Assembly (NCBI GenBank): GCA_963730605.1 | Contig: CAVSSM010000001.1 | Span: 576,001 to 640,000 of the forward strand | Origin: an uncultured Chlamydiae bacterium | GTDB lineage: Bacteria > Chlamydiota > Chlamydiia > Chlamydiales > SM23-39 | Reading direction: 5' to 3' | DNA: 64,000 nt | Part shown: one piece after another, positions 1,931 through 61,790 of the stretch | Position numbering within the stretch: position 1 is the first letter of the stretch | How the letters are laid out: each line of letters starts with the position of its first letter | The notes under the pieces: generated by a model | Database searches by the model: none | Told to the model about the DNA's origin: nothing | Seen by the model: only the letters and a program-made list of their open reading frames with translations | Program-made: the position numbers and the translations under genes

Positions 1931-2099
1931 TACTAACCCGCTACGCAAATAGGAGACAATTTATGCAGGTAAACGGAGATTGTTCAGATCAAGGCGCCCG
2001 ATGCAGGCAACCCCGCAGCGGGTTGTCGAAGCAGGGCAACGCAGAGATGGACAATCTACGTCCTGAAGAAATGTCTCATATTTGCATAGCGGATTAATA
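1931..2099. mobile_element. TA-bounded palindromic MITE between scc4 and cdsD
   Basis: Left end TACTAACCCGCTACGCAAATAGGAGACAATTT vs reverse complement of the right end TATTAATCCGCTATGCAAATATGAGACATTT; internal hairpins. Confidence 0.85.
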
Positions 2100-2103
2100 A
2101 TAC

Positions 2104-3933
2104 ATGCCAGCGCATCTGATCGCAGAAGAAGGTCCTCTCCGTGGACTTTTCTTAAATCTGGAAGAGGGAGTTGAGTGGATCTTAGGGCGAGACCCCGAAA
2201 AGGCCACATTCGTCATCGAAGACGAAACCGTCTCTCGGAGGGCCGCCCGTTTAAGCCGCAGCCCGGAAGGGATCCATCTTGAAAACCTAAGCCGCGTCAA
2301 TCCCACATTAGTGAATGACGAGCCAGTCGATGGCGTTGTCCTGCTCAAAGAAGGCGACCGGATCCAGGTAGGCCATACGATTTTTCTTTTTTCGGAAGCA
2401 AAAATCCCTGAAATGGGTCAGCCGCCGAAGGGGGGATACGACGATATTTTCGGCTCTCTGGAAGAAGAGGCGCCGCAAGTTGGGAGCGAAGCGCCCAAAA
2501 AGCGGGAAAAGAAGAAAAAGAGCGAGCCGGCCAACGCATACGACACGATTTTCGAGGATACCAACGAGGGAGTTGAGCCGCTGCCGTTCAACCTCCTCGC
2601 AGAGACACCTTTCCTATTGAAAGTGATCTCAGGCCCGAATGCGGGGGCCGAAATCGGAATGGAAAAAGGAAGGACGTACACCCTCGGCAAAGACCCTGAT
2701 TCCTGCGATATCGTCTTCCAAGATTTAAGCGTCTCGCGCAACCACGCGCGCCTGTCGTTGAGCGCGGACGGCGCGATGGAGATCGAAGATCTCGGCTCTA
2801 AAAATGGCACCGTCGTCAATGGAACGCCCATCACCGAAAAGAAACCCATCACGACGCAAGACATGGTCGCATTGGGGACGACGATCTTTTTGATCATCGA
2901 CCGGGAAGCTACCCAAGAGACCATTTATTCGCCGATGGTCCCCGCCTACGAGGCGCCGAAAGCAGAGGCGCGTTTGGCAGAGGTTCCCGCCGAGAGCCAG
3001 GCCGAAGAAAAGAAGGATTGGAAAAAAGTGCCGATCCCGACGAAGTATTTGATCGGCGCCGCTGCATTTGCCGCGATCTTCCTCATCGTTTTCTTGAGTT
3101 TCTTTTCCCTTTTCAAATCCAATCAGGTCGAAGTCGTCCGCAAGGAACCCGTCTCGCGGATCCAAAAGGCGCTTGCTAAATTCGAAGGGATTCAATTCTC
3201 TTTCAATCCGGCCAGCGGAAAACTCTTCCTTATAGGGCATGTGCTGACATCTGTCGAGGCGCAAGAGATGCGATTCCGGATTAGCGAGATCGATTTCGTG
3301 AGGGCATTGGAAGACAATGTCGTCATCGATGAATATGTAGACAAGATGATGAACGACATCTTAAGCGGAAACCCAGAATTTCGGGGCGTCGCCATCCAGT
3401 CTCCCAAAGCGGGGAAATTCATCGCCACCGGCTATATCGATACCAATAACACCGCATCGCTGCTTGGCGAATATCTCTCCGTCAATTTCCCTTATCTCGA
3501 CCGGCTGGAAAACGAGGTCGTCGTCGGGGAAAACCTGAATGCTCAGATCCAGGGGCTTCTTCTGTCGAAAGGATTCGGCGCGCTCTCCTTCCAATATGCG
3601 AACGGCGAGGTAGTGCTGGCCGGAAGTTATAGCGACAAAATGGGCAGCCAGTTCCAAGAGCTCCTCAAAGAGATCGATAGAGTGAAAGGAGTGAGCGGAG
3701 TCAAGAATTTCGCAGTCGAGACAAACCCAAACCAGGCTGCGATCGATATCTCAGGACAATTTCAAGTAACGGGAAACTCTCAGCATGAAGGGAAAGGGTT
3801 CAGCGCTATCCTCAATGGAAAAATTTATACGATTGGCAACCAGGTGAGCGGAATGGAGATTACTGAAATCGACGAGACGACGATTCTACTTGAAAAAGAA
3901 GGAATAAAATATAAAATCAACTACACCCGGTGA
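2104..3933 (+). CDS. cdsD: T3SS inner-membrane ring protein SctD/CdsD with two FHA domains
   Basis: Two FHA motifs (LGRDP..VSRR..NPTLVN and LGKDP..VSRNH..SKNGT), a central TM helix and BON-like periplasmic domains; synteny. Confidence 0.93.
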   Translation: MPAHLIAEEGPLRGLFLNLEEGVEWILGRDPEKATFVIEDETVSRRAARLSRSPEGIHLENLSRVNPTLVNDEPVDGVVLLKEGDRIQVGHTIFLFSEAKIPEMGQPPKGGYDDIFGSLEEEAPQVGSEAPKKREKKKKSEPANAYDTIFEDTNEGVEPLPFNLLAETPFLLKVISGPNAGAEIGMEKGRTYTLGKDPDSCDIVFQDLSVSRNHARLSLSADGAMEIEDLGSKNGTVVNGTPITEKKPITTQDMVALGTTIFLIIDREATQETIYSPMVPAYEAPKAEARLAEVPAESQAEEKKDWKKVPIPTKYLIGAAAFAAIFLIVFLSFFSLFKSNQVEVVRKEPVSRIQKALAKFEGIQFSFNPASGKLFLIGHVLTSVEAQEMRFRISEIDFVRALEDNVVIDEYVDKMMNDILSGNPEFRGVAIQSPKAGKFIATGYIDTNNTASLLGEYLSVNFPYLDRLENEVVVGENLNAQIQGLLLSKGFGALSFQYANGEVVLAGSYSDKMGSQFQELLKEIDRVKGVSGVKNFAVETNPNQAAIDISGQFQVTGNSQHEGKGFSAILNGKIYTIGNQVSGMEITEIDETTILLEKEGIKYKINYTR

Positions 3934-3946
3934 AAAGGAGAAGTGT

Positions 3947-4180
3947 ATGTACGGATTAGAAGAGAAGGAAAGACGGGAGAAATTCGCTTTTGATCTCGAA
4001 AGGAGAATCAAAGATGAACCGCAGCATTTGAAAGAGCTTCTCGCAAAAGCGGAAAAACGGATGGCGGAAATCAAAAAGCTGCTCAGAGAAGGAGCAAACG
4101 AAAAAGATTTCGACCGGCTCGGCATCCTCCTTCACGGTTATGCCGCATTGCAAAAAGTTTTAAAAAAAGCCGGAAAATAA
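3947..4180 (+). CDS. cdsE: T3SS needle chaperone CdsE
   Basis: FAFDLE..IK and LLHGYAALQKVL motifs; position between cdsD and cdsF. Confidence 0.85.
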   Translation: MYGLEEKERREKFAFDLERRIKDEPQHLKELLAKAEKRMAEIKKLLREGANEKDFDRLGILLHGYAALQKVLKKAGK

Positions 4181-4198
4181 CAAGAGGACAATCCAAAA

Positions 4199-4441
4199 AT
4201 GAAAGCAGGCGTAACTCTATCATTTACTACTCTAATTAAAAACTATCAGAAGTTGCAGTCGCAGCTCATGAGCCAGGTCAAGGGTCTTGCCAGTAAAATC
4301 AGCCAAGCAACGCCAGGTTCTTTCATTCTTCTGCAATTTCAAATGAGCCAGATCACTCAAATCGGCGAATCGATCTCCAACTTGATCGCGCAGGTCAATT
4401 CGGTCATCAACCACGCTGTCGGCAACCAAGGTAAGCAATAA
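4199..4441 (+). CDS. cdsF: T3SS needle subunit SctF/CdsF
   Basis: 80-aa helical hairpin with C-terminal LLQFQMSQITQIGESISNLI; synteny. Confidence 0.8.
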   Translation: MKAGVTLSFTTLIKNYQKLQSQLMSQVKGLASKISQATPGSFILLQFQMSQITQIGESISNLIAQVNSVINHAVGNQGKQ

Positions 4442-4451
4442 GGGATAAACC

Positions 4452-4886
4452 ATGACAAATCCAAATCTATGGAAACAGTTCAAAGAGGATTGGCTTCTCT
4501 TCACGGAATCCGGCTTCATCGCCGTAAACCAAGCGGACGAAGATGCCGCCTTGAAGCTTTTCAAGGCCGGCGAACTGCTCAATCCCGACAATACTTTGCC
4601 TCGCATAGGAATAGGCTATCTCCATTTGCACAAGTTGGAATTGAAGCAGGCCGTGAAAGCATTCGAACAAGTTCTCGACAAAGAGCCGCATAATGATATG
4701 GCGAAAACCTTTCTCGGCCTTTGCATGGGGATGATGCCGAATATGGCGGACAAAGGCGAAAAAATTTTGGAGCAAACGACAAAATCGAAAGATCCCGAAA
4801 TTCGGCAGCTTTCCGAAACGGCCATCGATTTCGTCGAAAAATTCATCAAAAAGTCTCCAGGACCCGCAGGAAAAGGCAAAACGTGA
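4452..4886 (+). CDS. cdsG: TPR needle chaperone CdsG
   Basis: ESGFIAVNQADEDAALKLF motif and TPR-like helices; synteny. Confidence 0.85.
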   Translation: MTNPNLWKQFKEDWLLFTESGFIAVNQADEDAALKLFKAGELLNPDNTLPRIGIGYLHLHKLELKQAVKAFEQVLDKEPHNDMAKTFLGLCMGMMPNMADKGEKILEQTTKSKDPEIRQLSETAIDFVEKFIKKSPGPAGKGKT

Positions 4887-5530: not shown

Positions 5531-5553
5531 GCCTATCCCACTATAGATAAATA

Positions 5554-6868: not shown

Positions 6869-6878
6869 AGTATGTCAT

Positions 6879-7421: not shown

Positions 7422-7436
7422 GAGGAGAGGTTCTCT

Positions 7437-13200: not shown

Positions 13201-14620
13201 CACAAACCTCCATGAGAGCGGCTTGACTGATCCCGACCTGTTCTCTGCGATCACTTCGATGAAGCTAGTCGAAAAAACCCAAAACCTCGTGTTTACGGGG
13301 ACGCCGAAAGCCCTCGATCAAGTGAAAGAAATCTTAAAAGCCTTCGACATCCCCTCCAATTTGGCCCACAAGCCTGTCGTCGGGCCATTAGAACCTTCGA
13401 TCCAGGCGATCGACAATACGAGCTTCCTCGTCTATAAACTGCAATTCCACAAAGGGGACGAGATCCAGGGCGCGTTGAAACAAATTGCCAAGGATCTGCT
13501 TTCGACAAACGCGCCGATCAACCAAAACCTTCTCAATTCGATCAATTCGATCCAATGGCTCGACGTGACCAACTCCCTTCTTTGCTCTGGAACCCAAGAA
13601 ACTTTGATCCGCTTGAAGGAATTGATCAAGAACCTCGATATCCCCTTGAAACAAGTCTTCATTGAGGTTCTGGTGATCGAGACTTCCTTGACAAACGCCC
13701 TTCTCTTTGGCCTCGAATGGGGCGGCAATTACAAATTCAACGACAAGTTCGGCATCAGTTCGTTCAATACCGTCCCGCCCCCGAACACTCAATCGCCTTT
13801 CCCGGATCAATTCGTGAGCAAGCTGTCCAGCCTTACGCCGCCAAGCCAGCAGCCCACCCCGATCGGCAATATCCCCCCGGTCGCTGGATTCGACCTTGGG
13901 GTCATCGGCGAAGTGATCAAACATAACGGCAACACCTTCCTGACCCTCGGTTCCTTGCTGAACGCCCTCCAATCAGACACCGAGACTACGATCATCACCG
14001 CCCCAAAAATCCTCGGTCAAGATGGCCGCACCTCCACCATTTTTTCCGGAGCGAATATCCCCTTTACGGGCTCATTCGTCAACAATACGACAAGCGGCGC
14101 TACGATCTTGACGTCGAACATCGAATACCGCGATATCGGGCTTAACCTGACGATCACTCCGGTTTTAGGCAATTCCGATATCGTTACCCTCGACATTAAT
14201 TTGGACCGCTCCCAGACGGCAACGAATGTCCTCGGTCAATCCCAACTGAACTTCCAGTCCCAAACTGCCAATGGCATCGTCACCAGCAAAACGACCATGC
14301 AGACTACAGTCCATGTCCCAGACCGCAATTTCTTGGTGCTCAGCGGATTTGTGAATAATTCGAATACAAAGGTCAAGCAAGGAATCCCTTGTCTTGGGGG
14401 ACTCCCCATGATCGGCGCCGCCTTCTCGCAGCAAAACGACACCATTTCCAACCAAAACGTCGTTATTTTCCTCAGGCCCTTCATCATCAATTCGATCGAG
14501 GATATGCGCCGCGTGACCTCGGAACAAGAGATCTTCTTTAGAGACTTGTCCAACACTCCATTCCTAGAGCATAATTATGACGATGCGATGGAACTCATCA
14601 AATCAGTCGACGATGACTAG
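10256..14620 (+). CDS. cdsC: T3SS outer-membrane secretin SctC/CdsC with expanded periplasmic repeats
   Basis: Signal peptide, N0 domain, many KH-like N-domain repeats, and a C-terminal secretin domain (KQVFIEVLVIE, EYRDIGL.L.ITP, GIPCLGGLPMIG..F). Confidence 0.92.
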   Translation: MIARIKAFFIAFSLLCSVSLFPEDAQELAAAAPVAKETPETAAQMADVGYTINYNTVSIIEYIRFASKICNVNFIFNEADLDFTVTVVSDAPITTQNVMGTLVQVLRIHGLSILEQDNNLVIHKAPEVTQIATLVTDHMEAKNVPIVTRIFRIKEAKAEAIAGVIRPMISNSALLEVMPETKQIILTDVTVNVDKVALLIEILDSPINQLGVRIYTTVHNSPEHLVEIASQIMAPIAQGNPYILVPQMTANAIYIVSTSELTDKTLAILKSLDVPPQKEISGQRRVKGENIFVYKAVSRPSDEIMSGLFSIAENLQKTGIPEGDLIHTIESARSIKETNSIMFTGSKDSIAKVKEFLTALDVPGTAFAVKSSFFVYRPKYRSAKELDSSLKETAENLKGAKEEGALIQILQSAKINKMTNTILFSGDESQFARINDLLATLDTPSGKKMPQEVKNDFFLYKIQHADYQDLQSSLKTFAKNLDKSNVQDEGLIHAIEDMKPITDTNSILFSGPEPALNRLKELVPSFDSGIASMPVSNQFLIYKPKNQKGDQLVKSIQEVAGNLKSDQFRDLAFLRTLESMKYVKNTDSLLFTGDAASITHLEDLIAKIDLPAGPKHEKILWLYSPTIASREKTETYLKQLSTNLAKQSESDLIQAIQSMKWIDASQSFLFQGSPNAIGRLKEVIQDFEQQSQSQTKPGYYIYKLHAAPGDVVEEELDAVAKGLKDSGLHDDKTLAVIRNMRYVKETNSLLLTGDPAAIDAVKAMIADYDYPRTAASQINSNFFMYKPQHQSAAQIEKSLHDIGENLKNAGLADPALLQTINSANYVKTTNSLIFTGNADSIQKIQSLLKEVDVPMKEHAPIQHIGKTTFLLYKLKVAGGPQIVTSIKTMAADLKKSGGADPELLAALNTMKYVKETNSLFFTGTEAALQKVQSLVEQFDVTSLAAAPLTPEKPPQPGQTNFFLYKPVSLAAADLEGLMSDFATNLHESGLTDPDLFSAITSMKLVEKTQNLVFTGTPKALDQVKEILKAFDIPSNLAHKPVVGPLEPSIQAIDNTSFLVYKLQFHKGDEIQGALKQIAKDLLSTNAPINQNLLNSINSIQWLDVTNSLLCSGTQETLIRLKELIKNLDIPLKQVFIEVLVIETSLTNALLFGLEWGGNYKFNDKFGISSFNTVPPPNTQSPFPDQFVSKLSSLTPPSQQPTPIGNIPPVAGFDLGVIGEVIKHNGNTFLTLGSLLNALQSDTETTIITAPKILGQDGRTSTIFSGANIPFTGSFVNNTTSGATILTSNIEYRDIGLNLTITPVLGNSDIVTLDINLDRSQTATNVLGQSQLNFQSQTANGIVTSKTTMQTTVHVPDRNFLVLSGFVNNSNTKVKQGIPCLGGLPMIGAAFSQQNDTISNQNVVIFLRPFIINSIEDMRRVTSEQEIFFRDLSNTPFLEHNYDDAMELIKSVDDD

Positions 14621-14789
14621 TAACCTGAGTTTTGGGTTCATTTGTCTATGAGATTCAAGGATATTTCGAGCATATTTTTGCGCTTTGGAGCCGAGAGCAA
14701 TATCGGGACGAGCATCTTGCCGAGGCGAAAAGTCAAAAAGATGCCGAAAGAAATTGAAGCTCAGGCAAATGAACCCAAAACTCAGGTTA
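14621..14789. mobile_element. Palindromic MITE inserted in the start of the downstream lipoprotein gene
   Basis: 24-bp perfect TIR TAACCTGAGTTTTGGGTTCATTTG / CAAATGAACCCAAAACTCAGGTTA; TAGTA is directly repeated at the two junctions. Confidence 0.9.
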
Positions 14790-15742
14790 GTACTCTTTTT
14801 CAAAAGTTTTTATTCCTTGCGGTGCTTATTGCCGCGGCGTCATGCTACCGCGTTACAGACAGCATCGACCCGCATGTGAGTTGGCAGCTGCAAGACCGCC
14901 ACCTTCAGGGGCTCAAGAGCGCCTTTGCCCCCTTCACTCCTGAAGAGAAGTCTGCCGACTGGTCGAAAGAGTGCGTCATCGCCTCTGGTTTCGCTCAGCA
15001 GCTCGATCTTTACCGCGCGATCTCAACCTACAAAAGGGCCGAGATCCTCATTCCTTGCACGGAAACCCAAAGGCAGATCGAGATCCAGTACGACATCCTC
15101 TTTTGCTTGTTTTTAGGCAAGAAATACGACGAAGCGATTGAGACTTTTGAAAAAGGGGGCCTTGCGCATGTGGATAAGACTTTTCCCGCCTACCGCGACC
15201 TTCTTTTAGTCCTTTATGAATGCTACCGGGAGATGGATCATCCTGAAAAGCAAGAACGAATTTATGAACTGATGGTCAAATCCTATCCTGACACGGCCGA
15301 GCAGTTGAAATTATCCCGCGCTATCCGCGAAGGAGAGCTGGCTGAGGTGGATCTTTTTGCCGTTGGATTCAACGGCCCGTCTTACTTAAGCAACCTTCTC
15401 GAAACGTACGACTGCGGGAAAAAGTCAGTCGCCTTGGCCCAAACCCTCAACGCCCTGCTTCCCGGCGCAGGGTATTTATATATCGGTCAAAAAAAATCGG
15501 CTCTCACCGCTTTTTTCCTCAACGGGCTTTTCATCGCTGCGGCCTACGAGTTCTTCCACCACGGCCATACGGCGGGCGGTATCATTACTCTTGGATTCGA
15601 GACGGGTTGGTACTTTGGCGGCATCTATGGCGCCGGAGAAGAGGCGAAATACTATAACGAGCGCCTCTACGAGCGGACCGCCAGCGCCTCCCTCAACGAC
15701 CAGAAACTATTCCCCGTCCTCATGCTGGAGCATTCGTTTTGA
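14648..15742 (+). CDS. TPR-containing lipoprotein with C-terminal membrane segments (start altered by the MITE)
   Basis: FLFLAVLIAAASC lipobox, TPR-like helices and LLPGAGYLYIG motif. Confidence 0.75.
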   Translation: MRFKDISSIFLRFGAESNIGTSILPRRKVKKMPKEIEAQANEPKTQVSTLFQKFLFLAVLIAAASCYRVTDSIDPHVSWQLQDRHLQGLKSAFAPFTPEEKSADWSKECVIASGFAQQLDLYRAISTYKRAEILIPCTETQRQIEIQYDILFCLFLGKKYDEAIETFEKGGLAHVDKTFPAYRDLLLVLYECYREMDHPEKQERIYELMVKSYPDTAEQLKLSRAIREGELAEVDLFAVGFNGPSYLSNLLETYDCGKKSVALAQTLNALLPGAGYLYIGQKKSALTAFFLNGLFIAAAYEFFHHGHTAGGIITLGFETGWYFGGIYGAGEEAKYYNERLYERTASASLNDQKLFPVLMLEHSF

Positions 15743-19403: not shown

Positions 19404-19405
19404 TA

Positions 19406-29085: not shown

Positions 29086-29259
29086 GAGGGTGTCTACAAA
29101 GTGAGGGAACGCCCGAGTTTTTGGATTATTTTGGTCGCTTTTCAACTTCAAAGCTTGGGGGGCCATATACTGCTGTCGATATTGCCCCCCAAGTCTTGAA
29201 TCGAAAATCGGCTCAAAAGAACCGAAAAATCGACAGAACCTCACTTTGCAGACACCCTC
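29086..29259. mobile_element. MITE family A, copy 2
   Basis: 174 bp, same TIRs as copy 1, TAA duplication. Confidence 0.9.
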
Positions 29260-32058: not shown

Positions 32059-33294
32059 TACTACAGCGTTTCATTAATTTTGCCAATTGTGGGGTAAAGC
32101 TTTTTTAGCTTGATTCTTGCGTCCTCAACTGTGAAGCGCCAGTCTATAACATGCGCATCCTTGTTTCTGCCCTCTAGCCAGGAGGCAACTTCTTTTTTAA
32201 CCTCGACTATGTCTCTTAGGCGTCGGTTTAAACATTGCCTGGAAAGGTGGCTTAATTCGATTTCTGCCATGTTTAACCAGCTCCCATGTTTCGGCGTATA
32301 ACGAAATTCCAGACGGTCTACGATCCTTTTCGCCTCTTTGGGCGGCAGAAGCTCATAAAGAGCAGCACCTGTATGGATATTTAAATTATCGCAGACCAAG
32401 AGGATCTTTTTTGCCTTGGGATAATGCTCCTCTACAAGTTTCTGTATATGTTTGGCCCAATCCAATCGAGTCCTTCTCTCCGAAACATCAATGTATCGTT
32501 TCCCTGTTAGTGGCTCAAAACTCAGCAGAATATTACTCACGCCATTGCGCTCATATCCTGTATCAAAGCGTTCAACCTTACCTCGTTTTGCTGGAATGTT
32601 ATCCAGCTTTCCTGCCTCGTGTTGCTTACTCGACTCATCCATGCAAATCATTGGATATTCTGGATTGTATGGGCACTTATAGAGGCCTAACACATTTTCC
32701 ATTCGGCAAACAAAGTCAGCGTTTTCCTCAGGAGGAATACACCATTCTTTCTTTAGCCAGGGCTTAAGTTCATTTTTTTTAAAGTGCGATGGACTGTGCT
32801 TCTGGAAATAGAATCAATAACTTCTAGCTGAACCAGTCTTTCGCTTAACAATCTCAAGGTCCATTCTTTGCGCCCTTCCGGAGGGGCCCCGCAACATATG
32901 GCAACCAGATGGGCTTCTTGATCACCATCGAGTTTTCTTGGTTTGTATTGGCGATGTTTTTTTCGGTGCAAAGCAGCTTCCAGTCCATCGTTTGCGAAAG
33001 ATTCTCTGACTCGATGTACAGTGCGTTCGTGAATATTCAACCCTGCCGCAATAGCTTTTGCTCTCAAACCCGGCCCCTCTTCACCAGAATCTGCCTGCAA
33101 TAGTATTCGAGCATGAGTGATTGTTTTTGCCTTCTGCTTTCCTTTATGCACAACTTCGAGTAATTGCTTGCGCTGACTAGGTGTTAACTTGACTTTATAC
33201 TTCTTTCGCATACCTGCACTCCCACGAATTTTACAAGGCGTCAAGTATATTTTTTATCAAGAAATTATGTCAAAATTAATGAAACGCTGTAGTA
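32059..33294 (-). mobile_element. IS630-family insertion sequence
   Basis: TA-CTACAGCGTTTCATTAATTTTG inverted at both ends. orfA (HTH, 32753-33211) and orfB (CMDE, CDNLN, HGSWLNMAE) join at an A8 slippery run near 32774-32781. Confidence 0.93.
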
Positions 33295-34671: not shown

Positions 34672-34846
34672 GAGGGTGTCTACAAAGTGAGGGAACGCCC
34701 GAGTTTTTGGATTATTTTGGCCGCTTTTCGACTTCAAAGCTTGGGGGACCATATACTGCTGTCGATATTGCCCCCCCAAGTCTTGAATCGAAAATCGGCT
34801 CAAAAGAACCGAAAAATCGACAGAAGCTCATTTTGCAGACACCCTC
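34672..34846. mobile_element. MITE family A, copy 3
   Basis: 175 bp, TGA duplication. Confidence 0.9.
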
Positions 34847-34896: not shown

Positions 34897-35070
34897 TATA
34901 CACAATAACCTGAAAAATTGATTTTTGACGGCGTCGAACAGCCACTCAATTTGAACCCACCTGCATTGCTCAACATATTCAAGTTGAGCTGCTTCGGAGC
35001 CGGCAAAGCCTAATTCAAATGAAGGGCGTCTCTTTGTCAAATTCCCTATTTTTCAGGTTGTTTGCGTATA
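34897..35070. mobile_element. TA-bounded palindromic MITE (ends like 61627 element, core like 36739 element)
   Basis: TATACACAATAACCTGAAAAAT ... ATTTTTCAGGTTGTTTGCGTATA. Confidence 0.85.
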
Positions 35071-36738: not shown

Positions 36739-36989
36739 TATACTGCTCAAAAAAAGTGAATCTGCCGGCGTCGGACAGCCACTGAATTTGAGACCCCACC
36801 TGCACCCCACCCCAAAGACGATGCGTCTTCGGGAACCCCGGCGCTAAACTTTTCAAGTTTAGCTGCTTCGGCGCCGACTTCGTCTGGCTCAAATTCAGGG
36901 CGCTGCTATGCACAAAAAATGTTCATTCAAGAACCTTTTGTGTGATTTCGCAGTGGCATTTTTCACTCTTTTTGATCGGTCGCAGTATA
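36739..36989. mobile_element. TA-bounded palindromic MITE carrying a nested 30-bp hairpin
   Basis: TATACTGC..TCAAAAAAAGTGAA / TTCACTCTTTTTGA..GCAGTATA; core homologous to 34927-35028. Confidence 0.82.
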
Positions 36990-38892: not shown

Positions 38893-39451
38893 ATTAGACC
38901 AAGATACCCTTGCACTGCGCGTCGCAAAAAAGAAAGGTGCATCTTCATGGAAAAAACCGGTTCTATATACTACTCTTACAACAATCGCAGGATTAGCGAC
39001 AGCCTATCTCTTTTATCAATTGGGTCGTTCTCAAGCTAATTCTTGCCCTGTGTGCACATGCCCGGAAGCTTCCAAACTGCAATCAGAACTATCAAAATGC
39101 CAACAAAAAATACCGGACATTTCCAAACTGCAATCAGAACTATTAAAATGGCAACAAAAAATACCGGACATTTCCAACCTGCAATCAGAATTATCAACAT
39201 ACCAACAAAAGTTCAATAAATGCAAAGACGTCCTCACTAGATTCCGAGACACATGCGAAGACGCCCTCAATAGATACGAAGACGCCTTCACTAGATACGA
39301 AGACGCCTTCACTGGATACAAAGACGCCTTCACTGGATACAAAGGCGCCTTCACTGGATACAAAGACATCTTCAATGTATGCATGGCCTCACACACTGAG
39401 ACTATTGCGGACATCAATAGGATTAGGCTTTCATTACCCAGGGTTAAGTAG
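38879..39451 (+). CDS. Membrane-anchored coiled-coil repeat protein, 5' end probably truncated by IS1634
   Basis: TM helix, CPVCTCP, then 17-aa and 7-aa repeats; the only start codon lies in the IS TIR. Confidence 0.6.
   Translation: MSKSGLDQDTLALRVAKKKGASSWKKPVLYTTLTTIAGLATAYLFYQLGRSQANSCPVCTCPEASKLQSELSKCQQKIPDISKLQSELLKWQQKIPDISNLQSELSTYQQKFNKCKDVLTRFRDTCEDALNRYEDAFTRYEDAFTGYKDAFTGYKGAFTGYKDIFNVCMASHTETIADINRIRLSLPRVK
39071..39382 (+). repeat. Coding tandem repeats: ~3 x 51 bp and 6 x 21 bp
   Basis: TCCAA(A/C)CTGCAATCAGAA at 39071, 39122 and 39173; (G/A)AAGACGCCTTCACT(A/G)GATAC-like units from 39257. Confidence 0.9.
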
Positions 39452-45988: not shown

Positions 45989-46642
45989 TAGACCGCTGGG
46001 GCTTCGCGCCTACTGCTTTCCTTGAAAAAGAGCGCACCCCCGCTCTTTTTCAAGTGTCCGCAGCCCCGCGGGGCTGACTACGGCTGTGGAGATCGTTCGC
46101 GCCTTTGGCGCTCAACTACCTCCATTCCCCTAAGTCGATGCGACTTTGGGGGCCCCTTGGGGCGCGCGTCCTCGGGCTCGTGCGTACATTCGTACTGCCA
46201 CTTCGCCCTGCGGTGCGATTCTCCTTTGCCGCGCGCAGCCATCGGCTGCAACGGCGCGCTCCCACCCCAAAATGTCCCATTTTGGGGCCCCATTCCGCGT
46301 CGCGTTGCAGTGCTTAGCTTGATCACAAATTTATTTATATTCAATCCTCTCCAGTCTCACGTTCTGAATGCGTCTCCCCACCTCCAAAAGGTCCGGGAAT
46401 GGCCTTGATCTTATGAGCCGAAGCATCTCCTGGGTTGCTAATGAGCGGATAATTTTCCTGATCGGGATGATCAGGTTGTGAATAGAAAAACCCAATATCA
46501 CTGTTTACAAAGAGAGTAGCAGTTAGTGGACTGTTTGCAATTCAGGAGTCCTTAGCTGGGAAATTCTTCTGGCCTTCTCTTTAAGCGGTCATTCAAGCAA
46601 CTTTTTCAAGGAAAGCAGTGGGCGCGAAGCCCCAGCGGTCTA
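45989..46642. mobile_element. 654-bp non-coding element with 42-bp terminal inverted repeats
   Basis: TAGACCGCTGGGGCTTCGCGCC(T/C)ACTGCTTTCCTTGAAAAAG at both ends (41/42 match); no transposase. Confidence 0.8.
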
Positions 46643-48858: not shown

Positions 48859-50322
48859 TTAAATATTTTTGCTCACAATTTCAGCGATTGCTTTGCGGTT
48901 GATTTTGTGGCCATTTTTGGGCAATTCATCATTGATGAAGAGAAAGCGGATAGGGATTTTGAACTTCGGAAGATGCTCGAGAAGGGCGCTTTTCAGGTAG
49001 GCGGGGTCTTTAGCTCGGGTGGACGCCACGAGGACCGCGAGCGGACGCTTGCCGAATTCAGGGTCGTCAACGGGGACCACCGCAGCTTCGAAAACATCCG
49101 GCAGTAAGAGGAGCTGCTGTTCGATCTCTTCGGGCTGGATATTTTCTCCCCCCGAGATGAACTGCCAGTCAATTCTACCCAAAACGGTCAGCCCGTCGTC
49201 TGACATCCGTCCAAGGTCCCCGGTCGCAAACCAGCTATCTTGATCAAACGGCTTTGAGATTCGCCCCTCTTCCCAGTAGCCCTCAAAGAGGCACTTTCCC
49301 CGCACGAGGATCTCGCCGATCTTCCCCTTCCCCAAAGACGATGCGTCTTTGGGGGCCCCTGTGGGGGAAAGGCGAAGTTCCCGTTCGGGAAGAGGAAAGC
49401 CCAAGGGGACCCCGAAGTCGCATCGACTTTGGGGTTGGGGAAAAAAAGATTTAGCGCCTACAGTGACAAGCGATCCCATTTCAGTCAGACCGTAGGACAG
49501 ATAGCAGGGAAGATGTTCAGGAAAAGAAGAGATGGGGGCGCCGCCGATCAGCAGGCACCGAAGATTTTTGTAGACGGGCGATTTCCGGTAAAGCTGGGCC
49601 GGCACGGCTGAAATGTGGGTGATTTCGGGGTCTTTCTCATCGAGGACAACAGTGGCAAGCGCTAAAGTAGAGCGTATAAGGATGCCGATCCCGCCTACAT
49701 GGTAAAGGGGGAGGTTGAGAAGCCAACGGTCCCCGATCCGTAACCCAAGCCATTTGGCAAGAGGCGCGGCGTTCGAGAGGAGATTAGAGAGCGATAGAAC
49801 GGCAATTTTTGGGAGAGCGGTCGAGCCCGAGGTGAAGAGGAGCGCCGCCGGGAAGGAAAGGGGAGGGTAGCGGTTCATGCGGAGGCGCGGGGAAAGGGGG
49901 GAAAAAGGGAGAAAAGAAAGGGGCCCCCGAAGTCGCATCGACTTTGGGGAAAAAAGGGGCCCCCAATGACGCATCGACTTTGGGGAAAAAAGGGGCCCCC
50001 AATGACGCATCGACTTTGGGGAAAAAGAGTCGATGAAGCAACGGGCGTCGAGGCGAGCGAGCAGGGTTTCGATTTGGGAAGCGGGAAGACGAAGCGATAG
50101 TGGGCAGATCGACGCTCCGATGCGCCAAGCGGCAAAAAATAGGGCTGCCGTTTCGCAAGTTGGGCGGTGCAAAAAAGCGATCCGGTCGCCCGGGCCGATG
50201 CCCGAGGCCTCGAGCGCCCGCGCCATCTTGTCCGCAAGCTCGTCAAGCTCTTGAAAGGTCGTCTTGTCAAAGGCGGGCAGTCGGGGAGCGAGTCTCGCGG
50301 CTTCTTTTAACGGACAGGGCAT
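48859..50322 (-). CDS. menE: O-succinylbenzoate-CoA ligase with in-frame hairpin insertions
   Basis: FTSGSTALPK, LPLYHVGG, SYGLTE, TGDLG, GRID..FISGGENI.PEEIE and FG.RP motifs. Confidence 0.92.
   Translation of the reverse strand: MPCPLKEAARLAPRLPAFDKTTFQELDELADKMARALEASGIGPGDRIAFLHRPTCETAALFFAAWRIGASICPLSLRLPASQIETLLARLDARCFIDSFSPKSMRHWGPLFSPKSMRHWGPLFSPKSMRLRGPLSFLPFSPLSPRLRMNRYPPLSFPAALLFTSGSTALPKIAVLSLSNLLSNAAPLAKWLGLRIGDRWLLNLPLYHVGGIGILIRSTLALATVVLDEKDPEITHISAVPAQLYRKSPVYKNLRCLLIGGAPISSFPEHLPCYLSYGLTEMGSLVTVGAKSFFPQPQSRCDFGVPLGFPLPERELRLSPTGAPKDASSLGKGKIGEILVRGKCLFEGYWEEGRISKPFDQDSWFATGDLGRMSDDGLTVLGRIDWQFISGGENIQPEEIEQQLLLLPDVFEAAVVPVDDPEFGKRPLAVLVASTRAKDPAYLKSALLEHLPKFKIPIRFLFINDELPKNGHKINRKAIAEIVSKNI
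49330..49434. repeat. Two oppositely oriented 30-bp hairpin elements in menE (49330-49359, 49405-49434)
   Basis: CCCCAAAGACG-ATG-CGTCTTTGGGG-GCCCC and a reverse-oriented variant. Confidence 0.9.
49920..50021 (-). repeat. Three tandem 30-bp hairpin elements (36-bp period) in menE
   Basis: Encodes FSPKSMRHWGPL twice, then FSPKSMRLRGPL. Confidence 0.92.
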
Positions 50323-50323
50323 A

Positions 50324-53523: not shown

Positions 53524-53643
53524 GAAAAATGAATTTTTTTGACCTTAACGGAACAAAATTATAACAGGTTATGGAAGGAGAAGCCGATCCAAGAAATTTG
53601 CGACTCTTGCAGGTAAATTTTAAATTGAATAATATTGTACAAA

Positions 53644-53786
53644 TTTTCGGTTCTTTTGAGCCGATTTTCGATTCAAGACTTGGGGGGCAATATCGACAAC
53701 AGTATATGGCCCCCCAAGCTTTGAAGTCGAAAAGCGGCCAAAATAATCCAAAAACTCGGGCGTTCCCTCACTTTGTAGACACCCTC
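53644..53786. mobile_element. MITE family A, copy 4 (inverted, one end missing)
   Basis: Reverse complement of copies 1-3, ending GTAGACACCCTC-TAA. Confidence 0.88.
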
Positions 53787-53809
53787 TAAACTAAATTGGG
53801 AGAAATTGA

Positions 53810-54241
53810 ATGACCTATCTCATAGAAAAGAATCATCAAACACATTTAAAGAATTGGAATGAGGTTAGAGAGCTTTTGCTCGGTTCATCACAAGATGCGA
53901 CTATTTCTCGCGAGCAAACTGCCTCGAGAACCTCAACGATGAAAAAAATCTGTAGTTTTGTCGAAATTCTAGCAGTAAGCGGTGCTATGTTAACTCTCGC
54001 ATTGGTGCGTTCTCGCTCTTTGAAATTGTTGGCCATACCACACTTGACTCTAGCATTCGGCTTCAATGAATTGCGCAACGTGGCGCAGAATATGGAACAG
54101 TTGCTTAATGCAGACGTATCTGTCAGAAAAGACGCAAGTTCCCCTGAACAGTTTCTTCGCACTATTTATAAAGGGACATTGCTCATTGAATATTATTTCA
54201 AGGCACTTGGAGAGCCTTACCACCTGAACTCCATACTCTAG
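53810..54241 (+). CDS. Orphan protein with a bilobed hydrophobic segment
   Basis: GGAG RBS; AT-rich; two adjacent hydrophobic helices. Confidence 0.6.
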   Translation: MTYLIEKNHQTHLKNWNEVRELLLGSSQDATISREQTASRTSTMKKICSFVEILAVSGAMLTLALVRSRSLKLLAIPHLTLAFGFNELRNVAQNMEQLLNADVSVRKDASSPEQFLRTIYKGTLLIEYYFKALGEPYHLNSIL

Positions 54242-54577
54242 CATTCGGCTTCAATGAATTGCGCAACGTGGCGCAGAATATGGAACAGTTGCTTTAGGGG
54301 CTGTTAAAGAATAAAGTAAACTGTTTTGCGGTTCTTAGAGTGGCCCAGATGTCTGCGGCAGCGACAAGGTCAATGTTCGAGCAATATAACCGAGTCGCTG
54401 CCGTCTGGCAGATGGGCCGCTATAATGGCCGGGAAATGGTTTAACTTATTTTTTAACAGCCCCTTAATGCAGACGTATCTGTCAGAAAAGACGCAAGTTC
54501 CCCTGAACGGTTTTTTCGCACTATTTATAAAGGGACATTGCTCATTGAATATTATTTCAAGGCACTTGGAGAGCCTT
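54047..54577 (+). repeat. Tandem duplication of ~172 bp (54047-54218 and 54235-54577); second copy interrupted by a MITE
   Basis: ACTCTAGCATTCGGCTTCAATG...GAGAGCCTT occurs twice. Confidence 0.92.
54297..54463. mobile_element. MITE with GGGGCTGTTAAA TIRs and TTA duplication
   Basis: Absent from the first copy of the duplication; ends GGGGCTGTTAAAGAATAA / TTATTTTTTAACAGCCCC. Confidence 0.9.
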
Positions 54578-54634
54578 CATAAGAGACTGTCTGCGATCCT
54601 ACCATAAGTTGCTCAGTCTAGCTACCATAATACG

Positions 54635-54802: not shown

Positions 54803-54951
54803 CATAAGCTGTAATTAATTCGTAATCTTTACTATGTCGTCGGAACTTCCCCAGCCATGCAAACATTTTCTAAGCGGCTACTGGTCTGCTTTATGAGTTG
54901 AACGATTTGGTCGCATTGATTGTAAGTAAAAAAATGACAATATAAAAAATT

Positions 54952-56781
54952 TTAATTTACGGTAAACACCGACTCTCTCGAGCAAGCGGATTGGAATTTT
55001 TTTTGAAACCTGTAGTTTTCATCCCTCTTTGTAAAGAGTTCCACTAGGGCGCTTTGCTCGAAGGAGATGCGCTCGAAGGGGAGATAGGGGATGCCGAACA
55101 TCCGGGCCGCGTCTTCAAAGCGGAAGGAGTGGGAGGCCGCCATATAGGTTTCGAATTGAGGCCACTCTGCGATGGGAAGATGAGAAAAGATGCCGCTGCC
55201 GAAATTGTTCGAGGCCAAAATAACGACAGGGTGGGCGGTTTTTTTCAAAAGGGGAAGGGAATTCAGGTCATGGAGACAGGTCTGGTCTCCAAGAATGGCA
55301 AGGACGGGGGCGTGAAGCCCCTCCGAGAGCCCTGCAGCAGTGGCGATATTGCCGTCGATGCCCGAAAGGCCCCGGTTGCCAAAAAACCCCAGGCATTTTT
55401 TCGGAAAAAGAAAATGATCGGCGTCGCGGATTGGCATCCCGTTCGCAAGGAAAACGGCAAAAAACTCTGGAAGCATTTCGGCGAGATGACGCATCGCGTG
55501 CGCTTCGGTAAAAGGAAAGTCCTCCCGGAACTGGTTTTCAGAGACGGCCAAGATCTCCTCATCGAGCCCTTTCCATCGGCCAAGCCATGAAGGGTCGCAT
55601 CCACCTGCAAATGTTTCGCAAAAAGGTTCGATATCGCACTGCAAACGGCCATGCAATCTCCGGTTCGGATCTTGAAGAAAAGGGGACGGGCTTACATGGA
55701 GTGTCGGCGCCCAATCTAGAATTTTTTTAGAGGCGAACCGATTGCCGAAATGAAGGATATAATCAGGGAACAGGTGCGGATTTGTTTTGATAATCCAATC
55801 GAAATGGCGGATCTGTTCGTAAGAGGGCTCTAGCCTCGCATTGGATAGGATGTCGGCAAATACGGGCCATTGAAGCCTTTCCGCAAGGGTCAAGATAGGA
55901 CGGGGATCGGATCCGGTCTCGCCGATGAAGATGACCCCTCGTTTTGCCTCTGTTTTGGTTGGAGGCGGGACGAGGCGGGCAGGGGCAAAGCGGATGGGGA
56001 ATCCCGATTCTTGGGGAGGATCTCGAGTAAAAGGTTCGCGGAATTGGCAATTGAGCTGGACGGGGCCTTTCGGGTTTTGGGTCGCGTGGAAGACCCCTTG
56101 CGCGGCGATTGAGCGGAAATAACTTTCGGAAAGGTGTGGCGGAAGATCGGCTTGCCAGCGGATAAAATGGCTGAAAATCTTGATTTGGTCCGTGGTTTGG
56201 TTTGCGCCGCAATCTCGGAGCTCTGCGGGCCGATCGCAAGTCAGAAGAATCATCGGCGTGGAGCTGTGGTGCGCCTCCATGACGCTGGGGAGAAGATTGC
56301 CGACGGCGGTCCCCGAGGTCGTGATCACGGCAGCGGGGCGCCTTGCCCCTTTTCCATATCCTAACGCATAAAAACCAAGGCCCCGCTCGTCATAATGGAC
56401 GATCGTTTTCGTTCGAGGGTGTTCTGCGGCCGCCACGACAAGCGGCGTATTTCTCGATCCTGGGGCAATGCAGAAATGATCGGTCCCTTGGCAGATCAAT
56501 TGATCGATGATCCAAAATGCCTCTTTATTAACATGGGTGGTAAAAAGTTGACAATCTACTTGCTGCGCCTCCCTTCGGGCCGATTCGCTTCGCTCATCTG
56601 CTCCGCGAGAAAAAGGTTTCTCGAACCTTTTTCTCGATTCCGCAGCCAAATCGATCTTCCTCGTCGCCCTTGCCTCTGGCAATGGTGCTCCTTGTTCAGA
56701 ACGGGGGCTTTGCCCCCTTCGATTTTGCTGTGGCTCGCTGGCGTATATTGTCTCCTTTTTATCGCCCCTGTTAATAGTCAT
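54952..56781 (-). CDS. menD: SEPHCHC synthase with an 83-aa N-terminal MITE-derived insert
   Basis: APGSRNTPL, DERGLGFYALG, TSGTA, NRGLSGIDG and GD...LHDLN motifs; the ATG overlaps the menF stop. Confidence 0.93.
   Translation of the reverse strand: MTINRGDKKETIYASEPQQNRRGQSPRSEQGAPLPEARATRKIDLAAESRKRFEKPFSRGADERSESARREAQQVDCQLFTTHVNKEAFWIIDQLICQGTDHFCIAPGSRNTPLVVAAAEHPRTKTIVHYDERGLGFYALGYGKGARRPAAVITTSGTAVGNLLPSVMEAHHSSTPMILLTCDRPAELRDCGANQTTDQIKIFSHFIRWQADLPPHLSESYFRSIAAQGVFHATQNPKGPVQLNCQFREPFTRDPPQESGFPIRFAPARLVPPPTKTEAKRGVIFIGETGSDPRPILTLAERLQWPVFADILSNARLEPSYEQIRHFDWIIKTNPHLFPDYILHFGNRFASKKILDWAPTLHVSPSPFLQDPNRRLHGRLQCDIEPFCETFAGGCDPSWLGRWKGLDEEILAVSENQFREDFPFTEAHAMRHLAEMLPEFFAVFLANGMPIRDADHFLFPKKCLGFFGNRGLSGIDGNIATAAGLSEGLHAPVLAILGDQTCLHDLNSLPLLKKTAHPVVILASNNFGSGIFSHLPIAEWPQFETYMAASHSFRFEDAARMFGIPYLPFERISFEQSALVELFTKRDENYRFQKKFQSACSRESVFTVN
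56526..56776. mobile_element. TA-bounded palindromic MITE inserted in frame in menD
   Basis: 34-bp imperfect TIR TATTAACATGGGTGGTAAAAAGTTGACAATCTAC vs reverse complement TATTAACAGGGGCGATAAAAAGGAGACAATATAC. Confidence 0.88.
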
Positions 56782-60083: not shown

Positions 60084-60164
60084 GACGTCAAACTTATCGC
60101 ATATGCAGATTTAGTTCAAAACTACTTAGCTCTCATCCCAAAAAAGCCCCTGGATTTTTTCTCT

Positions 60165-61562
60165 TCATGGACAGGCTTCTCGACCACATTGGCATTTTCT
60201 TGGCCATAGAGTGGATTCCTCTAGAGGATTCTCTGCATTATCTTGGATTTCGAGTTGATGTTCTTGTTTGAGGTAGTTCTTAAGAATTCGATCAATGGTA
60301 CTGATCTCTAGCGCATTTTTATTTCTTACTTCTGTTTTCAATCGATTGATGAATTTAAAAATGTCGCGACCTGAGAACCCTTCTGTTTGGTTGCCAATAT
60401 GTTCGATAATCTCCGGTGTAAAGAAACGTCGATATTCGGAGGGAGTCACAAGGAGATCGACGTTGCTTCTGGTCATCTCTTTCCGTTCCGCCAGCTCAGG
60501 AGCTCCAATTTTGATTTTGTAATCCATACGGCTCAGTATTGCTGGATCCAGATTTTTCGGAAGATTTGTAGCAAAGACCCACATGATTTTAGAACTAGAT
60601 GAACTTGTTAATTTCAGGAATGCATTTAAAAAAGACACTAATTCTTGGCTTTTGCCATTTTTTTTGGCTTCCTCCCTGTTTTCAAAGCATGCTTCCGCTT
60701 CATCCACAAAAATAACGGTTTGAGAAGGGAGGCTTTTCACATATTCTACCAATTTTTGCAACATGTCGACCGCTGCGCCCGCAGAGTTCTGATTCGAGAC
60801 GCGGACGCTGACCGGTCCTTGCAAAGCGTTATAATTCATCCCTTTTAAGAAATCTCCGCCAGAAATGTACATGTAATTCATATTGGAGTTCTTTGCGATC
60901 CATTTTGAGATCATTGTTTTTCCTGTTCCAGGAGGACCGTAGACAAGTAGATGTTGAAAAAAGTCATTTCTTTCTTTGCTTGTCTGCGTGGTGGCTAGGA
61001 TTTCATCAAGTTCTGCTTGGAGCTTAGGGCTAAATATGGGTTTTGTTTCCAAAGAGAGATCCTTGTCAAAGTATTGGGAAATCACTTCGTAGGAGCCAAG
61101 AGCTAGCGATGCTCCGACTCCGATCAGCGTAGGCAATACCCACAAAGAGATCAGGTCGTTTCCAAAATAGTCCTTACTAAAGCCAAAGAGATTGAGACAA
61201 GACGAGGTTGTTTTATGCGCCAGAGTCCAAAGGGACTTCGCTGTAGGATGCATATCGGAATAAAGCCAAGAGAGCCATAACGCTCCTCCGGTGATACTGG
61301 ATGCGGTAGCCCCTTCTACTCGATGCGCCCAGAATTTGGAGCCAAACTCTTGGGCTTTTTGTTTGGTATTAGGCCACCAATCCACATAATTTATTTTAAC
61401 TGGCAAGGATTCACTTTCAAAAAATTTATTAGCAAGAGATGATAATATGCTTTTTGTCATCATCGCGCCAAAGGCGAGTGCGCCCATCTTATACACAGTG
61501 CTCTGGACGTTTTTTAAAGAATTTGCTATATCATCCAAACTATTTATATTAATATTATTCAT
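60165..61562 (-). CDS. AAA+ ATPase with an N-terminal membrane region (ATAD3-like)
   Basis: YGPPGTGKT, SGGD, FVDEAE, LNAFL and ATN.P..LDPAILSR motifs; GGAG RBS. Confidence 0.82.
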   Translation of the reverse strand: MNNININSLDDIANSLKNVQSTVYKMGALAFGAMMTKSILSSLANKFFESESLPVKINYVDWWPNTKQKAQEFGSKFWAHRVEGATASSITGGALWLSWLYSDMHPTAKSLWTLAHKTTSSCLNLFGFSKDYFGNDLISLWVLPTLIGVGASLALGSYEVISQYFDKDLSLETKPIFSPKLQAELDEILATTQTSKERNDFFQHLLVYGPPGTGKTMISKWIAKNSNMNYMYISGGDFLKGMNYNALQGPVSVRVSNQNSAGAAVDMLQKLVEYVKSLPSQTVIFVDEAEACFENREEAKKNGKSQELVSFLNAFLKLTSSSSSKIMWVFATNLPKNLDPAILSRMDYKIKIGAPELAERKEMTRSNVDLLVTPSEYRRFFTPEIIEHIGNQTEGFSGRDIFKFINRLKTEVRNKNALEISTIDRILKNYLKQEHQLEIQDNAENPLEESTLWPRKCQCGREACP

Positions 61563-61626
61563 AATTACTCCATAGTTAATTTATAAGATTATAAAAAAAA
61601 TAAACAATAAGAGTCAAGCTGCGAAT

Positions 61627-61790
61627 TATACCGAAACAACCTGAAGAATCGGGAATTTGACAAGGAGGCTCCTCAGAATTTGTGTTCGGAGCAAGCGACC
61701 ATTGCGCGTGCGCAAGGCGCGATTGAGAACAAAAATTCTGAGGTAAAGCCGACGCAGTCAAAAACCGATTCTTCAGGTTGTTTCGGTATA
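61627..61790. mobile_element. TA-bounded palindromic MITE
   Basis: 26-bp perfect TIR TATACCGAAACAACCTGAAGAATCGG; inner arms CCTCAGAATTT / AAATTCTGAGG. Confidence 0.92.

Follow-up and report, generated by a model that had tools for sequence, protein, structure and literature searches.

Six TA-bounded miniature elements with mosaic hairpin interiors in a chlamydial genome, two of them in frame within genes

Six short palindromic elements in a 64,000-nucleotide stretch of an uncultured Chlamydiae bacterium (the window, taken from genome G000), together with their relatives, are probably non-autonomous miniature transposons of the type II MITE kind, a reading of the sequence comparisons to which we give a probability of about 0.75. 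Alignment of the copies showed that their interiors are mosaics of hairpin modules, whose gain, loss and sharing do not follow the ends, and that one such core occurs between the ends of several insertion sequence (IS) families. A preliminary description, made from the letters of the window, had proposed seven elements of one modular family. All seven exist; the coordinates and inverted ends of the TA-bounded ones and the net lengths of 249, 249, 267 and 162 bp were confirmed. The features of the window are as follows.

1931..2099, forward strand: class Y3 TA-flanked MITE, 169 bp, between cesT (stop 1927) and cdsD (ATG 2104)
1963..2097, forward strand: mini-ORF of 44 codons inside element 1931, from the sequence, translation predicted
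1984..2050, forward strand: core A, the conserved hairpin module of element 1931, which other Chlamydiota also carry between unrelated ends
14623..14787, no strand assigned: IS982-type MITE, 165 bp, with a 5-bp duplication at 14618-14622 and 14788-14792, outside the TA system (element 14621)
32059..33294, reverse strand: IS630-family element of a second type, with ends unlike the MITE ends
34897..35070, no strand assigned: class T1 MITE, 174 bp, a single diverged copy 23 nt upstream of an ATG at 35094
36739..36989, no strand assigned: class T0 MITE of 251 bp in an intergenic stretch, each neighbour lying about 200 nt away
45989..46642, no strand assigned: TA-bounded single-copy element of 654 bp; it carries two shared modules, and its 42-nt inverted ends are of another type
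49324..49439, reverse strand: two free-standing short hairpin modules (a module also inside T elements) in the AMP-binding-enzyme ORF 48859-50322
49914..50026, reverse strand: short hairpin module in three tandem 36-bp copies, in frame in the same ORF 48859-50322
56526..56776, reverse strand: class Y5 MITE, 251 bp, in frame at menD codon 2, adding 83 codons
59793..60061, reverse strand: class T4 MITE, 269 bp, in frame in an O-antigen-ligase-like gene 16 nt past the conserved ATG, adding 89 codons
61627..61790, no strand assigned: class T1 MITE, 164 bp, intergenic, with the typA stop (61817) on one side and an ATG at 61562 on the other

Ten TA-bounded pairs of inverted ends scored at least 14 in the window, compared with none in each of 8 shuffles, and the folding z-scores were -8.4 for element 56526 and -8.9 for element 1931. 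The TA-inserting system to which the six elements belong comprises 127 catalogued copies, many of them young, which make up 1.25% of the assembly and range from 113 to 358 bp. The elements are short, carry terminal inverted repeats and lack a transposase, as bacterial type II MITEs do. Full-length copies at 85% identity or more, query included and some rows being partial at one end, numbered 7 for 1931, 26 for 14621, 1 for 34897, 7 for 36739, 2 for 56526, 3 for 59793 and 6 for 61627. A contig of sequencing run X6 joins across element 56526. Rfam gave no match within the window at the gathering threshold.

Element 14621 does not belong with the others, and on this point the claim of a single family failed. 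At its ends it matches the IS982 at G000:C9:129508-130644, with 18 nt identical to the right end of the IS982, and a 5-bp duplication is common to the two; the resemblance is confined to the ends. Because it has these ends and this duplication, is not TA-bounded and shares no interior with any of the other six, we rejected it as a member of the TA system. Ends and duplication length are those of an IS982-derived MITE.

We compared filled and empty sites at five loci (menD, the ligase gene, PDH E1, RecD2 and element 1931), using the closest informative orthologue. The empty sites were colinear without gaps and the net insertion equalled the element length minus 2 at all five, indicating a target duplication as in type II MITEs. 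Since the empty site spells TA at just two of the five loci (RecD2 in G002 and element 1931 in G003), the TA duplication rests on the colinear length together with the TA present at both termini in 90 of 127 copies. In the family of element 1931 the duplication could be 3 bp.

At least six end classes, including T0, T1, T2, T4, Y3 and Y5, occur in the system. The end types had been described as shared in pairs. This was correct for 34897 and 61627, both T1, but unsupervised clustering of the ends, without prototypes, placed 1931 and 56526 in different clusters, and likewise 36739 and 59793. Both ends of an element are of the same class in all but 1 of the 127 copies, when the pairing of the related E0 and E4 and three end clusters with a single member are scored as within-class. 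The proposed interchangeability of ends and cores stands for the interior relative to the end pair, but does not extend to free mixing of an element's two ends.

A co-occurring IS630 with matching ends, of the kind that the preliminary description had suggested looking for, was found for T1 and T2. This IS630 (NF033545) is intact in G000, in 14 near-identical copies with open frames, and sits outside the window (for example at G000:C1:117042-118162); its transposase of 347 aa is encoded at G000:C1:117104-118147. The first 21 nt of its left end are identical to a T2 end; its right end agrees with a T1 end at 20 of 26 positions and weakly, at 18 of 26, with T0. The likeness of T1 and T2 to the IS630 is restricted to the ends, and IS630 relatives in other genomes bear T1/T2-like ends. 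Two other IS630 types reached at best 15/26 against the MITE ends, and as possible partners the window's own IS630 and one of a third type were discarded on end identity. The G000 assembly, 83% complete, yielded no IS whose ends correspond to T0, T4, Y3 or Y5. We suggest that IS630-type transposases would mobilise the MITEs in trans into TA sites.

Interior sequence was shared by 703 pairs among 66 representatives, compared with 0 in 5 shuffles, and none of the interior modules was common to the 9 control MITE families of G000. Between end classes there were 347 blocks of at least 50 nt, with a mean identity of 84% as against 50% for the ends; the best such block was 96% identical and the ends beside it 37% (ends of this kind are about 35-40% alike). 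Cores common to different end types were confirmed for 34897/36739 and for 56526/59793, and 84 same-class pairs lacked any common interior, so that ends and cores are not strictly linked genome-wide. At one locus that differs between two genomes, the same gene and site carries a 164-bp form in L159 and a 236-bp form in G000; the difference is exactly a 72-bp module, and both forms are in frame. These cross-class blocks, this difference in place and the unrelated ends around core A bear out the proposed exchange of modules between end types. Just 29 of 520 sequence windows were clearly closer to another class than to their own, most matching their own class at least as well, suggesting that much of the sharing is old. 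Recombination or template switching between the numerous palindromic copies may swap modules and the outer ~20 nt, and end swapping would let a lineage switch to whichever transposase is active.

The core of element 1931, core A, occurred between unrelated ends in at least 32 of 401 Chlamydiota genomes, in agreement with the chlamydial range that had been proposed; a core A model gave no match in E. coli K-12. The repeats flanking core A elements are of 2, 4, 8 and 10 bp. In G081, the ends of a core A element equal those of an ISAs1 of the same genome over 20 nt and are unrelated further in, and similarity to the ISAs1 (L108) is confined to the ends. In most elements the distance from core A to one of the ends is about 43-56 nt, regardless of end type. 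With a structure taken from a single member's fold, which favours the test, 94% of its pairs were kept and 8 of 14 pairs had changed on both sides, a level reached in 0 of 500 shuffles.

Within long ORFs of G000 we found 21 in-frame, stop-free copies, including those in MenD, RecD2, PDH E1 and FolC, with inserts of 37-106 residues. The elements had been called coding-compatible, and these copies support the term; of the four window elements with net lengths divisible by 3, however, coding sequence holds 56526 and 59793 only. Among T elements overlapping coding sequence, 24 of 30 had such a 3n length, compared with 4 of 21 control MITEs, whereas in families without a copy in coding sequence the lengths divided 10/11/10 modulo 3. 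An intrinsic 3n length was therefore rejected for the system as a whole and retained for T4; the 3n length would be mostly a host filter, and lineage-wide in T4. The T4 peptide occurs in 81 predicted proteins of unrelated families, 4 of which resemble G000's own, and the RecD2 insert peptide had matches in 4 of 251 genomes, G000 counted. Host starts were verified against orthologues for menD and the ligase gene, and later starts may bypass the N-terminal inserts. Genes being dense in this genome, the host would purge disruptive insertions, leaving survivors between genes or at gene edges, and stop-free 3n lineages (T4, parts of T0, T1 and T2, and Y5) could persist inside genes too.

A concentration at gene starts had also been claimed. 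Six of the seven window elements do lie near a start; for 1931, 14621 and 61627, however, a stop is equally close or closer. In the genome, 42 of 125 elements were near a start, compared with 21 of 110 control MITEs (p=0.013), and 47 of 125 were near a stop, compared with 42 of 110 (p=1.0); the genes were called with a home-made caller (~78% coding), so start positions and 'intergenic' labels are approximate. The general claim did not hold: enrichment at stops is just as strong, and Y3 together with the N-terminal inserts accounts for the excess at starts. For T elements, general start-codon targeting was rejected (20/113 vs 13/110 control MITEs, p=0.26). An ATG opening at least 100 codons lay at -3 to +12 nt in 7 of 14 Y elements, as against 13 of 110 controls and 10.3% of background TA sites.

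Class Y3 elements (169-358 bp) carry a ribosome site and an ATG within the inverted repeat, at both ends in several copies. In element 1931 the mini-ORF has an SD-like site and ATG in the left repeat and a stop in the right, 6 nt upstream of the cdsD ATG. A downstream ATG lay within 12 nt in 6 of 12 Y3 elements, and in 5 of these 6 a mini-ORF stops 2 nt before the element end. Counted from the end of the element, the spacing to the host ATG ranges from -1 to +4 nt. Y3 may persist at start codons by bringing along a ribosome site of its own together with a mini-ORF whose end lies beside the host ATG.

We tentatively propose a gene-less lineage defined by folded cores, which would switch transposase families (IS630, ISAs1, IS5-like and others) by replacing the outer ~20 nt, the core being a cis signal that aids spread. 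Some branches would be lineage-selected for open 3n frames or for built-in translational coupling, and would thereby keep supplying proteins across Chlamydiota with new segments. We put this proposal at somewhat below even odds. It is also conceivable, if rather unlikely, that the modules are themselves mobile REP-like hairpins, which an HUH/Y1 enzyme or slippage during replication would place within MITEs and genes, so that the mosaics are nested insertions and not recombination between MITEs. Module segments away from catalogued ends fall in called coding sequence in 25 of 49 cases, some in tandem, G000 MITEs of other families nest within each other, and the 72-bp difference in place would fit as well. 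Random nesting, however, would not be expected to leave core A at much the same distance from one end in most elements, the modules are absent from all 9 control families, and a search of G000 for Y1/HUH enzymes gave one weak partial match (E 3e-5).

Divergence from a single ancestral element, in which the ends drift fast with their transposases, the core is conserved and exchange is unnecessary, seems to us improbable. T0, T1, T2 and T4 do open with the same five letters, the preponderance of own-class matches agrees with descent, and core A covaries as if constrained. But same-end pairs without a common interior and 96% identical cores beside 37% identical ends argue against it, and for core A it is contradicted by the same core lying between ISAs1-identical ends with 10-bp duplications and between TA ends. 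We consider it very improbable that the cores are domesticated RNA structures useful to the host, in mRNA stability or translation, with positive selection for positions at gene edges. The kept pairs and two-sided changes of core A would agree with this, as would one insert that stayed in frame across 16% protein divergence; yet insertion sites are mostly not common to congeners, the host genes have functions unrelated to one another, control MITEs are equally often near stops, and no Rfam family was matched.

BLAST of the elements against plasmids and E. coli genomes, insensitive with short queries and large collections, gave no match. In global alignment to the rpsB-tsf repeat, which we take to be ERIC (the 127-bp enterobacterial repeat), z reached 3.9 among 57 representatives and 2.6 for controls. 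Nine insert peptides matched nothing at E<=1 in Pfam or in NCBIfam, which includes models of the Rickettsia palindromic elements (RPE), and thus showed no RPE homology by sequence. The RPE, named as an analogue at the outset, are therefore alike in stop-free, in-frame insertion into conserved genes but not in sequence.

In the available text of PMC2229807, RUP of Streptococcus pneumoniae, ERIC and Correia/NEMIS are TA-flanked bacterial MITEs, the similarity of its ends links RUP to IS630-Spn1, in-frame fusions are reported for ERIC and for the short Correia form, and Correia occurs with or without a 50-bp interior piece. The chlamydial elements resemble them in TA termini, inverted ends, a long stem-loop and lack of a transposase, and RUP was assigned to IS630 on the same kind of evidence; they differ in having at least six end classes with common modules, at 113-358 bp, and one core that also occurs with ISAs1-type and other ends. 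The RPE comprise several related palindromic families, inserted in frame over 100-300 bp in unrelated conserved genes with a common peptide, according to the text available of PMC10969869, PMC2229807 and PMC3767692; their duplication is given as unknown in Table 1 of PMC2229807. Insertion of the chlamydial elements is likewise in frame and free of stops and falls in conserved genes unrelated to one another, again in an intracellular bacterium, but one of a different phylum, and for these elements there are a candidate transposase and a duplication length. MIRU of mycobacteria are described in the accessible parts of PMC12548453 and PMC3184786 as 40-100 bp long, with 4-nt direct repeats, a -4 overlap and an ORF ending beside the host start, read as translational coupling. 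Y3 is similar in its place at start codons and in its internal ORF adjoining the host start; it departs from MIRU in size, in TA flanks instead of the 4-nt repeat, in spacing instead of the -4 overlap, and in lacking the mycobacterial sequence. QMITE1 and QMITE2 of Coxiella burnetii, as presented in the part of PMC5896051 consulted, are ORF-bearing, make up ~1% of the genome and occasionally insert in frame, and in these respects resemble our elements; their in-frame mid-gene inserts are mainly in hypothetical genes, and that part reports no interior sharing between end types.

The open full-text literature searched listed no description of these elements in Chlamydiota, and none of a single core whose ends belong to different IS families; 'chlamyd' is absent from the main text of PMC10969869, PMC3184786, PMC11602168 and PMC5896051 and incidental in PMC3733652.

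The occurrence of one core with both IS630-type and ISAs1 ends argues that a MITE is not necessarily a decayed copy of its own IS. With a candidate transposase, empty sites and the in-place gain or loss of a module available, the movement and rebuilding of such elements become testable. For genomes of environmental chlamydiae, a practical consequence is that these inserts distort gene starts, protein lengths and alignments. Since many elements lie in frame inside housekeeping genes, they would add new stretches to proteins, as the Rickettsia palindromic elements do, and the phenomenon of selfish palindromes lengthening housekeeping proteins would extend to a second phylum of intracellular bacteria.

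All seven elements (named by window start: 1931, 14621, 34897, 36739, 56526, 59793 and 61627) were confirmed at the positions claimed in the preliminary description, each with inverted ends. The window holds 10 TA-bounded inverted pairs scoring at least 14, and 8 shuffles gave none; the folding z was -8.4 for 56526 and -8.9 for 1931. The source assembly is 2.2 Mb in size and 83% complete; genes in the window, including those for CdsD, CesT and a secretin, assign it to Chlamydiota. An end-profile search of the assembly gave 379 ends and 129 pairs. Four pairs were removed (one palindrome artefact, two mispairings and one duplicate inside a large palindrome) and two were added by hand, giving 127 elements. 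Of these, 113 have TATAC-type ends (T) and 14 have ends of a second type (Y); together they make up 27.7 kb, equal to 1.25% of the assembly. Another 121 ends lacked a partner, 28 of them being IS630 ends. Unsupervised clustering sorted the ends into classes T0, T1, T2, T4, Y3 and Y5, with 57 sequence variants, and both ends of an element fell in the same class except in one T1/T2 hybrid. Nine other MITE families of the assembly (110 full-length copies) served as controls; unrelated families there are mostly 165-186 bp in size. Matches to the 61627 family occurred in 20 of 41 relatives, and the record titles of all 80 T4 loci from GTDB were chlamydiae, Verrucomicrobia-labelled or unnamed MAGs.

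Element 14621 had been placed in the same family as the others, and this did not hold: it is unlike them, with a 165-bp body and a 5-bp duplication around its copies. An IS982 (PF13612) on contig C9 (129508-130644) agrees with it in its ends and in the length of the duplication. It is the only IS982 matching this family, is interrupted by a 170-bp MITE and carries a stop within the transposase match, whereas the MITE copies are 98-100% identical. In the window (14613-14787), the IS982 MITE, which itself spans 14623-14787, overlies the secretin stop, 10 nt past an ATG able to start the next gene, and its net 170 bp disrupts the frame from that ATG. Another ATG within it, at 14741, shares the frame of the downstream gene, whose orthologues vary at their N-termini; judged from the reading frames, the element may provide that gene with a new start.

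Other elements in the window, by window position
1207-1379, IS5-like MITE of another family, 3-bp duplication
29086-29259, IS5-like MITE of another family, 3-bp duplication
34672-34846, IS5-like MITE of another family, 3-bp duplication
45989-46642, TA-bounded element of 654 bp, single copy, 42-nt inverted ends of a further type, two shared modules inside
about 53630-53800, IS5-like MITE of another family, 3-bp duplication
54297-54463, IS5-like MITE of another family, 3-bp duplication

Around an IS5-like MITE at 54047-54577 are local duplications measuring 60 and 123 bp. At 39062-39400, 51-bp and 21-bp tandem repeats lie in a short ORF downstream of an IS1634 transposase.

We compared the interiors of 66 representatives after trimming 34 nt from each end (25 for controls). 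Interiors were shared by 703 pairs, by none in 5 shuffles and by none with the nine control families. Blocks of at least 50 nt shared between classes averaged 84% identity, against 50% for the corresponding ends; the best reached 96% against 37%, and 84 pairs of the same end class had no common interior. These results bear out the proposed interchangeability of ends and cores. Only 29 of 520 windows, within 11 of 57 representatives, were clearly nearer to another class, which counts against a high recent exchange rate. That the ends drifted without any exchange is unlikely. At one site in one gene, a T4 element measures 236 bp in the source assembly and 164 bp at locus L159 of another genome; the two differ by one 72-bp block, and the frame is open in both.

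Modules of the 72-bp type also occur in 257-bp elements at L146, L151 and L155 (genome G162), which have unrelated ends and are flanked by 4-bp repeats; several of them lie in long ORFs near the start. A T2 element (contig C1, 317546-318081) is enlarged to about 535 bp by 45-bp tandem copies of the short hairpin module. Three elements (L060, L133 and contig C7, 76503-76758) have identical ends although their family has two end subtypes, which suggests arm-to-arm copying. Near-perfect palindromes of 0.5-1.6 kb (C10, 9305-10875; C1, 720293-720795; C8, 4113-4725), one of which has a Y3 element on either side, are either genuine or assembly artefacts.

Core A, the hairpin module in the centre of 1931 (1984-2050), was present in at least 32 of 401 Chlamydiota genomes; this is a minimum, since scoring covered two candidates in each genome. 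It is surrounded by about ten unrelated end types, with flanking repeats of 2, 4, 8 or 10 bp, and at 6 of the 42 loci inspected no inverted ends passed the threshold. In genome G081 the ends match a resident ISAs1 (20 nt identical) and the sequence further in is unrelated. The short hairpin module is also found on its own, away from catalogued ends: of 49 such segments, 25 fall in called CDS, the AMP-binding-enzyme gene of the window being one of the genes concerned. Modules might move independently of the MITEs, a tentative idea compatible with the reading we prefer. Core A base pairs were kept at 94% across 32 distinct rows, with double-sided changes in 8 of 14 pairs of a structure taken from a single member's fold (0 of 500 shuffles as high). 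A domesticated RNA structure is improbable as the explanation.

With the element and one TA removed, the sequence was colinear, without gaps, with its nearest informative orthologue at five loci (menD, which holds 56526; the O-antigen-ligase-like gene, which holds 59793; PDH E1; RecD2; and cesT-cdsD, which flank 1931), with TA at the site in only two. A contig from sequencing run X6 joins across the menD element with identical net length.

The assembly contains 29 IS630-type matches. Fourteen near-identical copies of one type carry an open 347-aa frame. The left end of this type is the same as a T2 end over 21 nt, and the right end agrees with T1 at 20 of 26 positions; neither of the other two types exceeds 15 of 26 against any class. 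T1/T2-like ends also occur on related IS630 in other genomes. The expected IS630 with matching ends was found for T2 and T1; no partner IS for T4, Y3 or Y5 was found in this 83% complete assembly. MITE interiors have nothing in common with the IS630 interior, so the T/Y elements are type II MITEs as defined in PMC10969869.

For the position tests, a home-made gene caller was applied to the genome after removal of the elements. CDS bodies held 62% of background TA sites and 16 of 127 T/Y sites. Intergenic T sites lay within 65 nt of a start in 27 of 83 cases (background 21%, p=0.014) and of a stop in 34 of 83 (14%, p=2e-9). With two nested copies excluded, T/Y elements exceeded control MITEs near starts (42/125 vs 21/110, p=0.013) and in CDS bodies (16/125 vs 4/110, p=0.017), not near stops (47/125 vs 42/110, p=1.0). 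The suggested concentration at gene starts is only partly borne out, stops being enriched over background too. Two sources account for the start signal: Y elements and N-terminal in-frame inserts. An ATG opening at least 100 codons lay at -3 to +12 nt of 7 of 14 Y elements (background 10.3%, p=2e-4; controls 13/110, p=0.002), and of 20 of 113 T elements, like controls (p=0.26). The Y3 inverted repeats hold an inward-facing SD-like site and ATG, and the frame opened there usually ends 2 nt short of the far end, a design also described for MIRUs in PMC12548453. For 11 of the 21 in-frame inserts, the first start was no more than 59 nt away. The T4 peptide fell within the first 25 residues of 15 of 63 proteins of other genomes (4.9 expected), a count that open elements may inflate by letting gene callers extend ORFs through them.

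Lengths divisible by 3 were found at 24 of 30 T sites in CDS vs 44 of 83 intergenic ones, and in 4 of 21 control MITEs in CDS. Families without any CDS copy split 10/11/10 by length mod 3, so a host filter explains much of this bias. Coding-compatible length consequently fails as a general property and holds for T4: 10 of 10 in the source assembly, 61 of 66 paired loci in a peptide-based scan (biased toward open frames, 14 of 80 loci unpaired), and 8 of 12 in G162 and 14 of 16 in genome G334, hand-paired from DNA-search coordinates excluding unpaired ends. Hosts of the 21 in-frame inserts (22 ORFs scanned, no family for 9) include MenD, RecD2, PDH E1, an E2 subunit, FolC, a secretin, a CT351-like barrel and an rRNA methyltransferase. 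The T4 peptide occurred in 81 predicted proteins among 8000 scored, including MutS, RecC, RecQ, PtsI and transaldolase.

Taken together, we favor, at roughly 75%, a reading in which an IS630-type transposase would move the MITEs, recombination or template switching would swap interiors and outer ends, the host would filter insertions, and open 3n frames or a coupling cassette would render some lineages harmless in genes. The T/Y elements resemble RUP, ERIC and Correia elements in transposition, RPEs in their behaviour in genes and MIRUs in their behaviour at starts; identity as RPE or MIRU was rejected on sequence, and they are classed as MITEs. In a comparison with ERIC, BLAST and model searches gave no match, and global alignment reached z values of up to 3.9 among 57 representatives and up to 2.6 among controls. 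No description of them was found in the literature searched. What is distinctive here is the coding and coupling branches and the change of modules in place.
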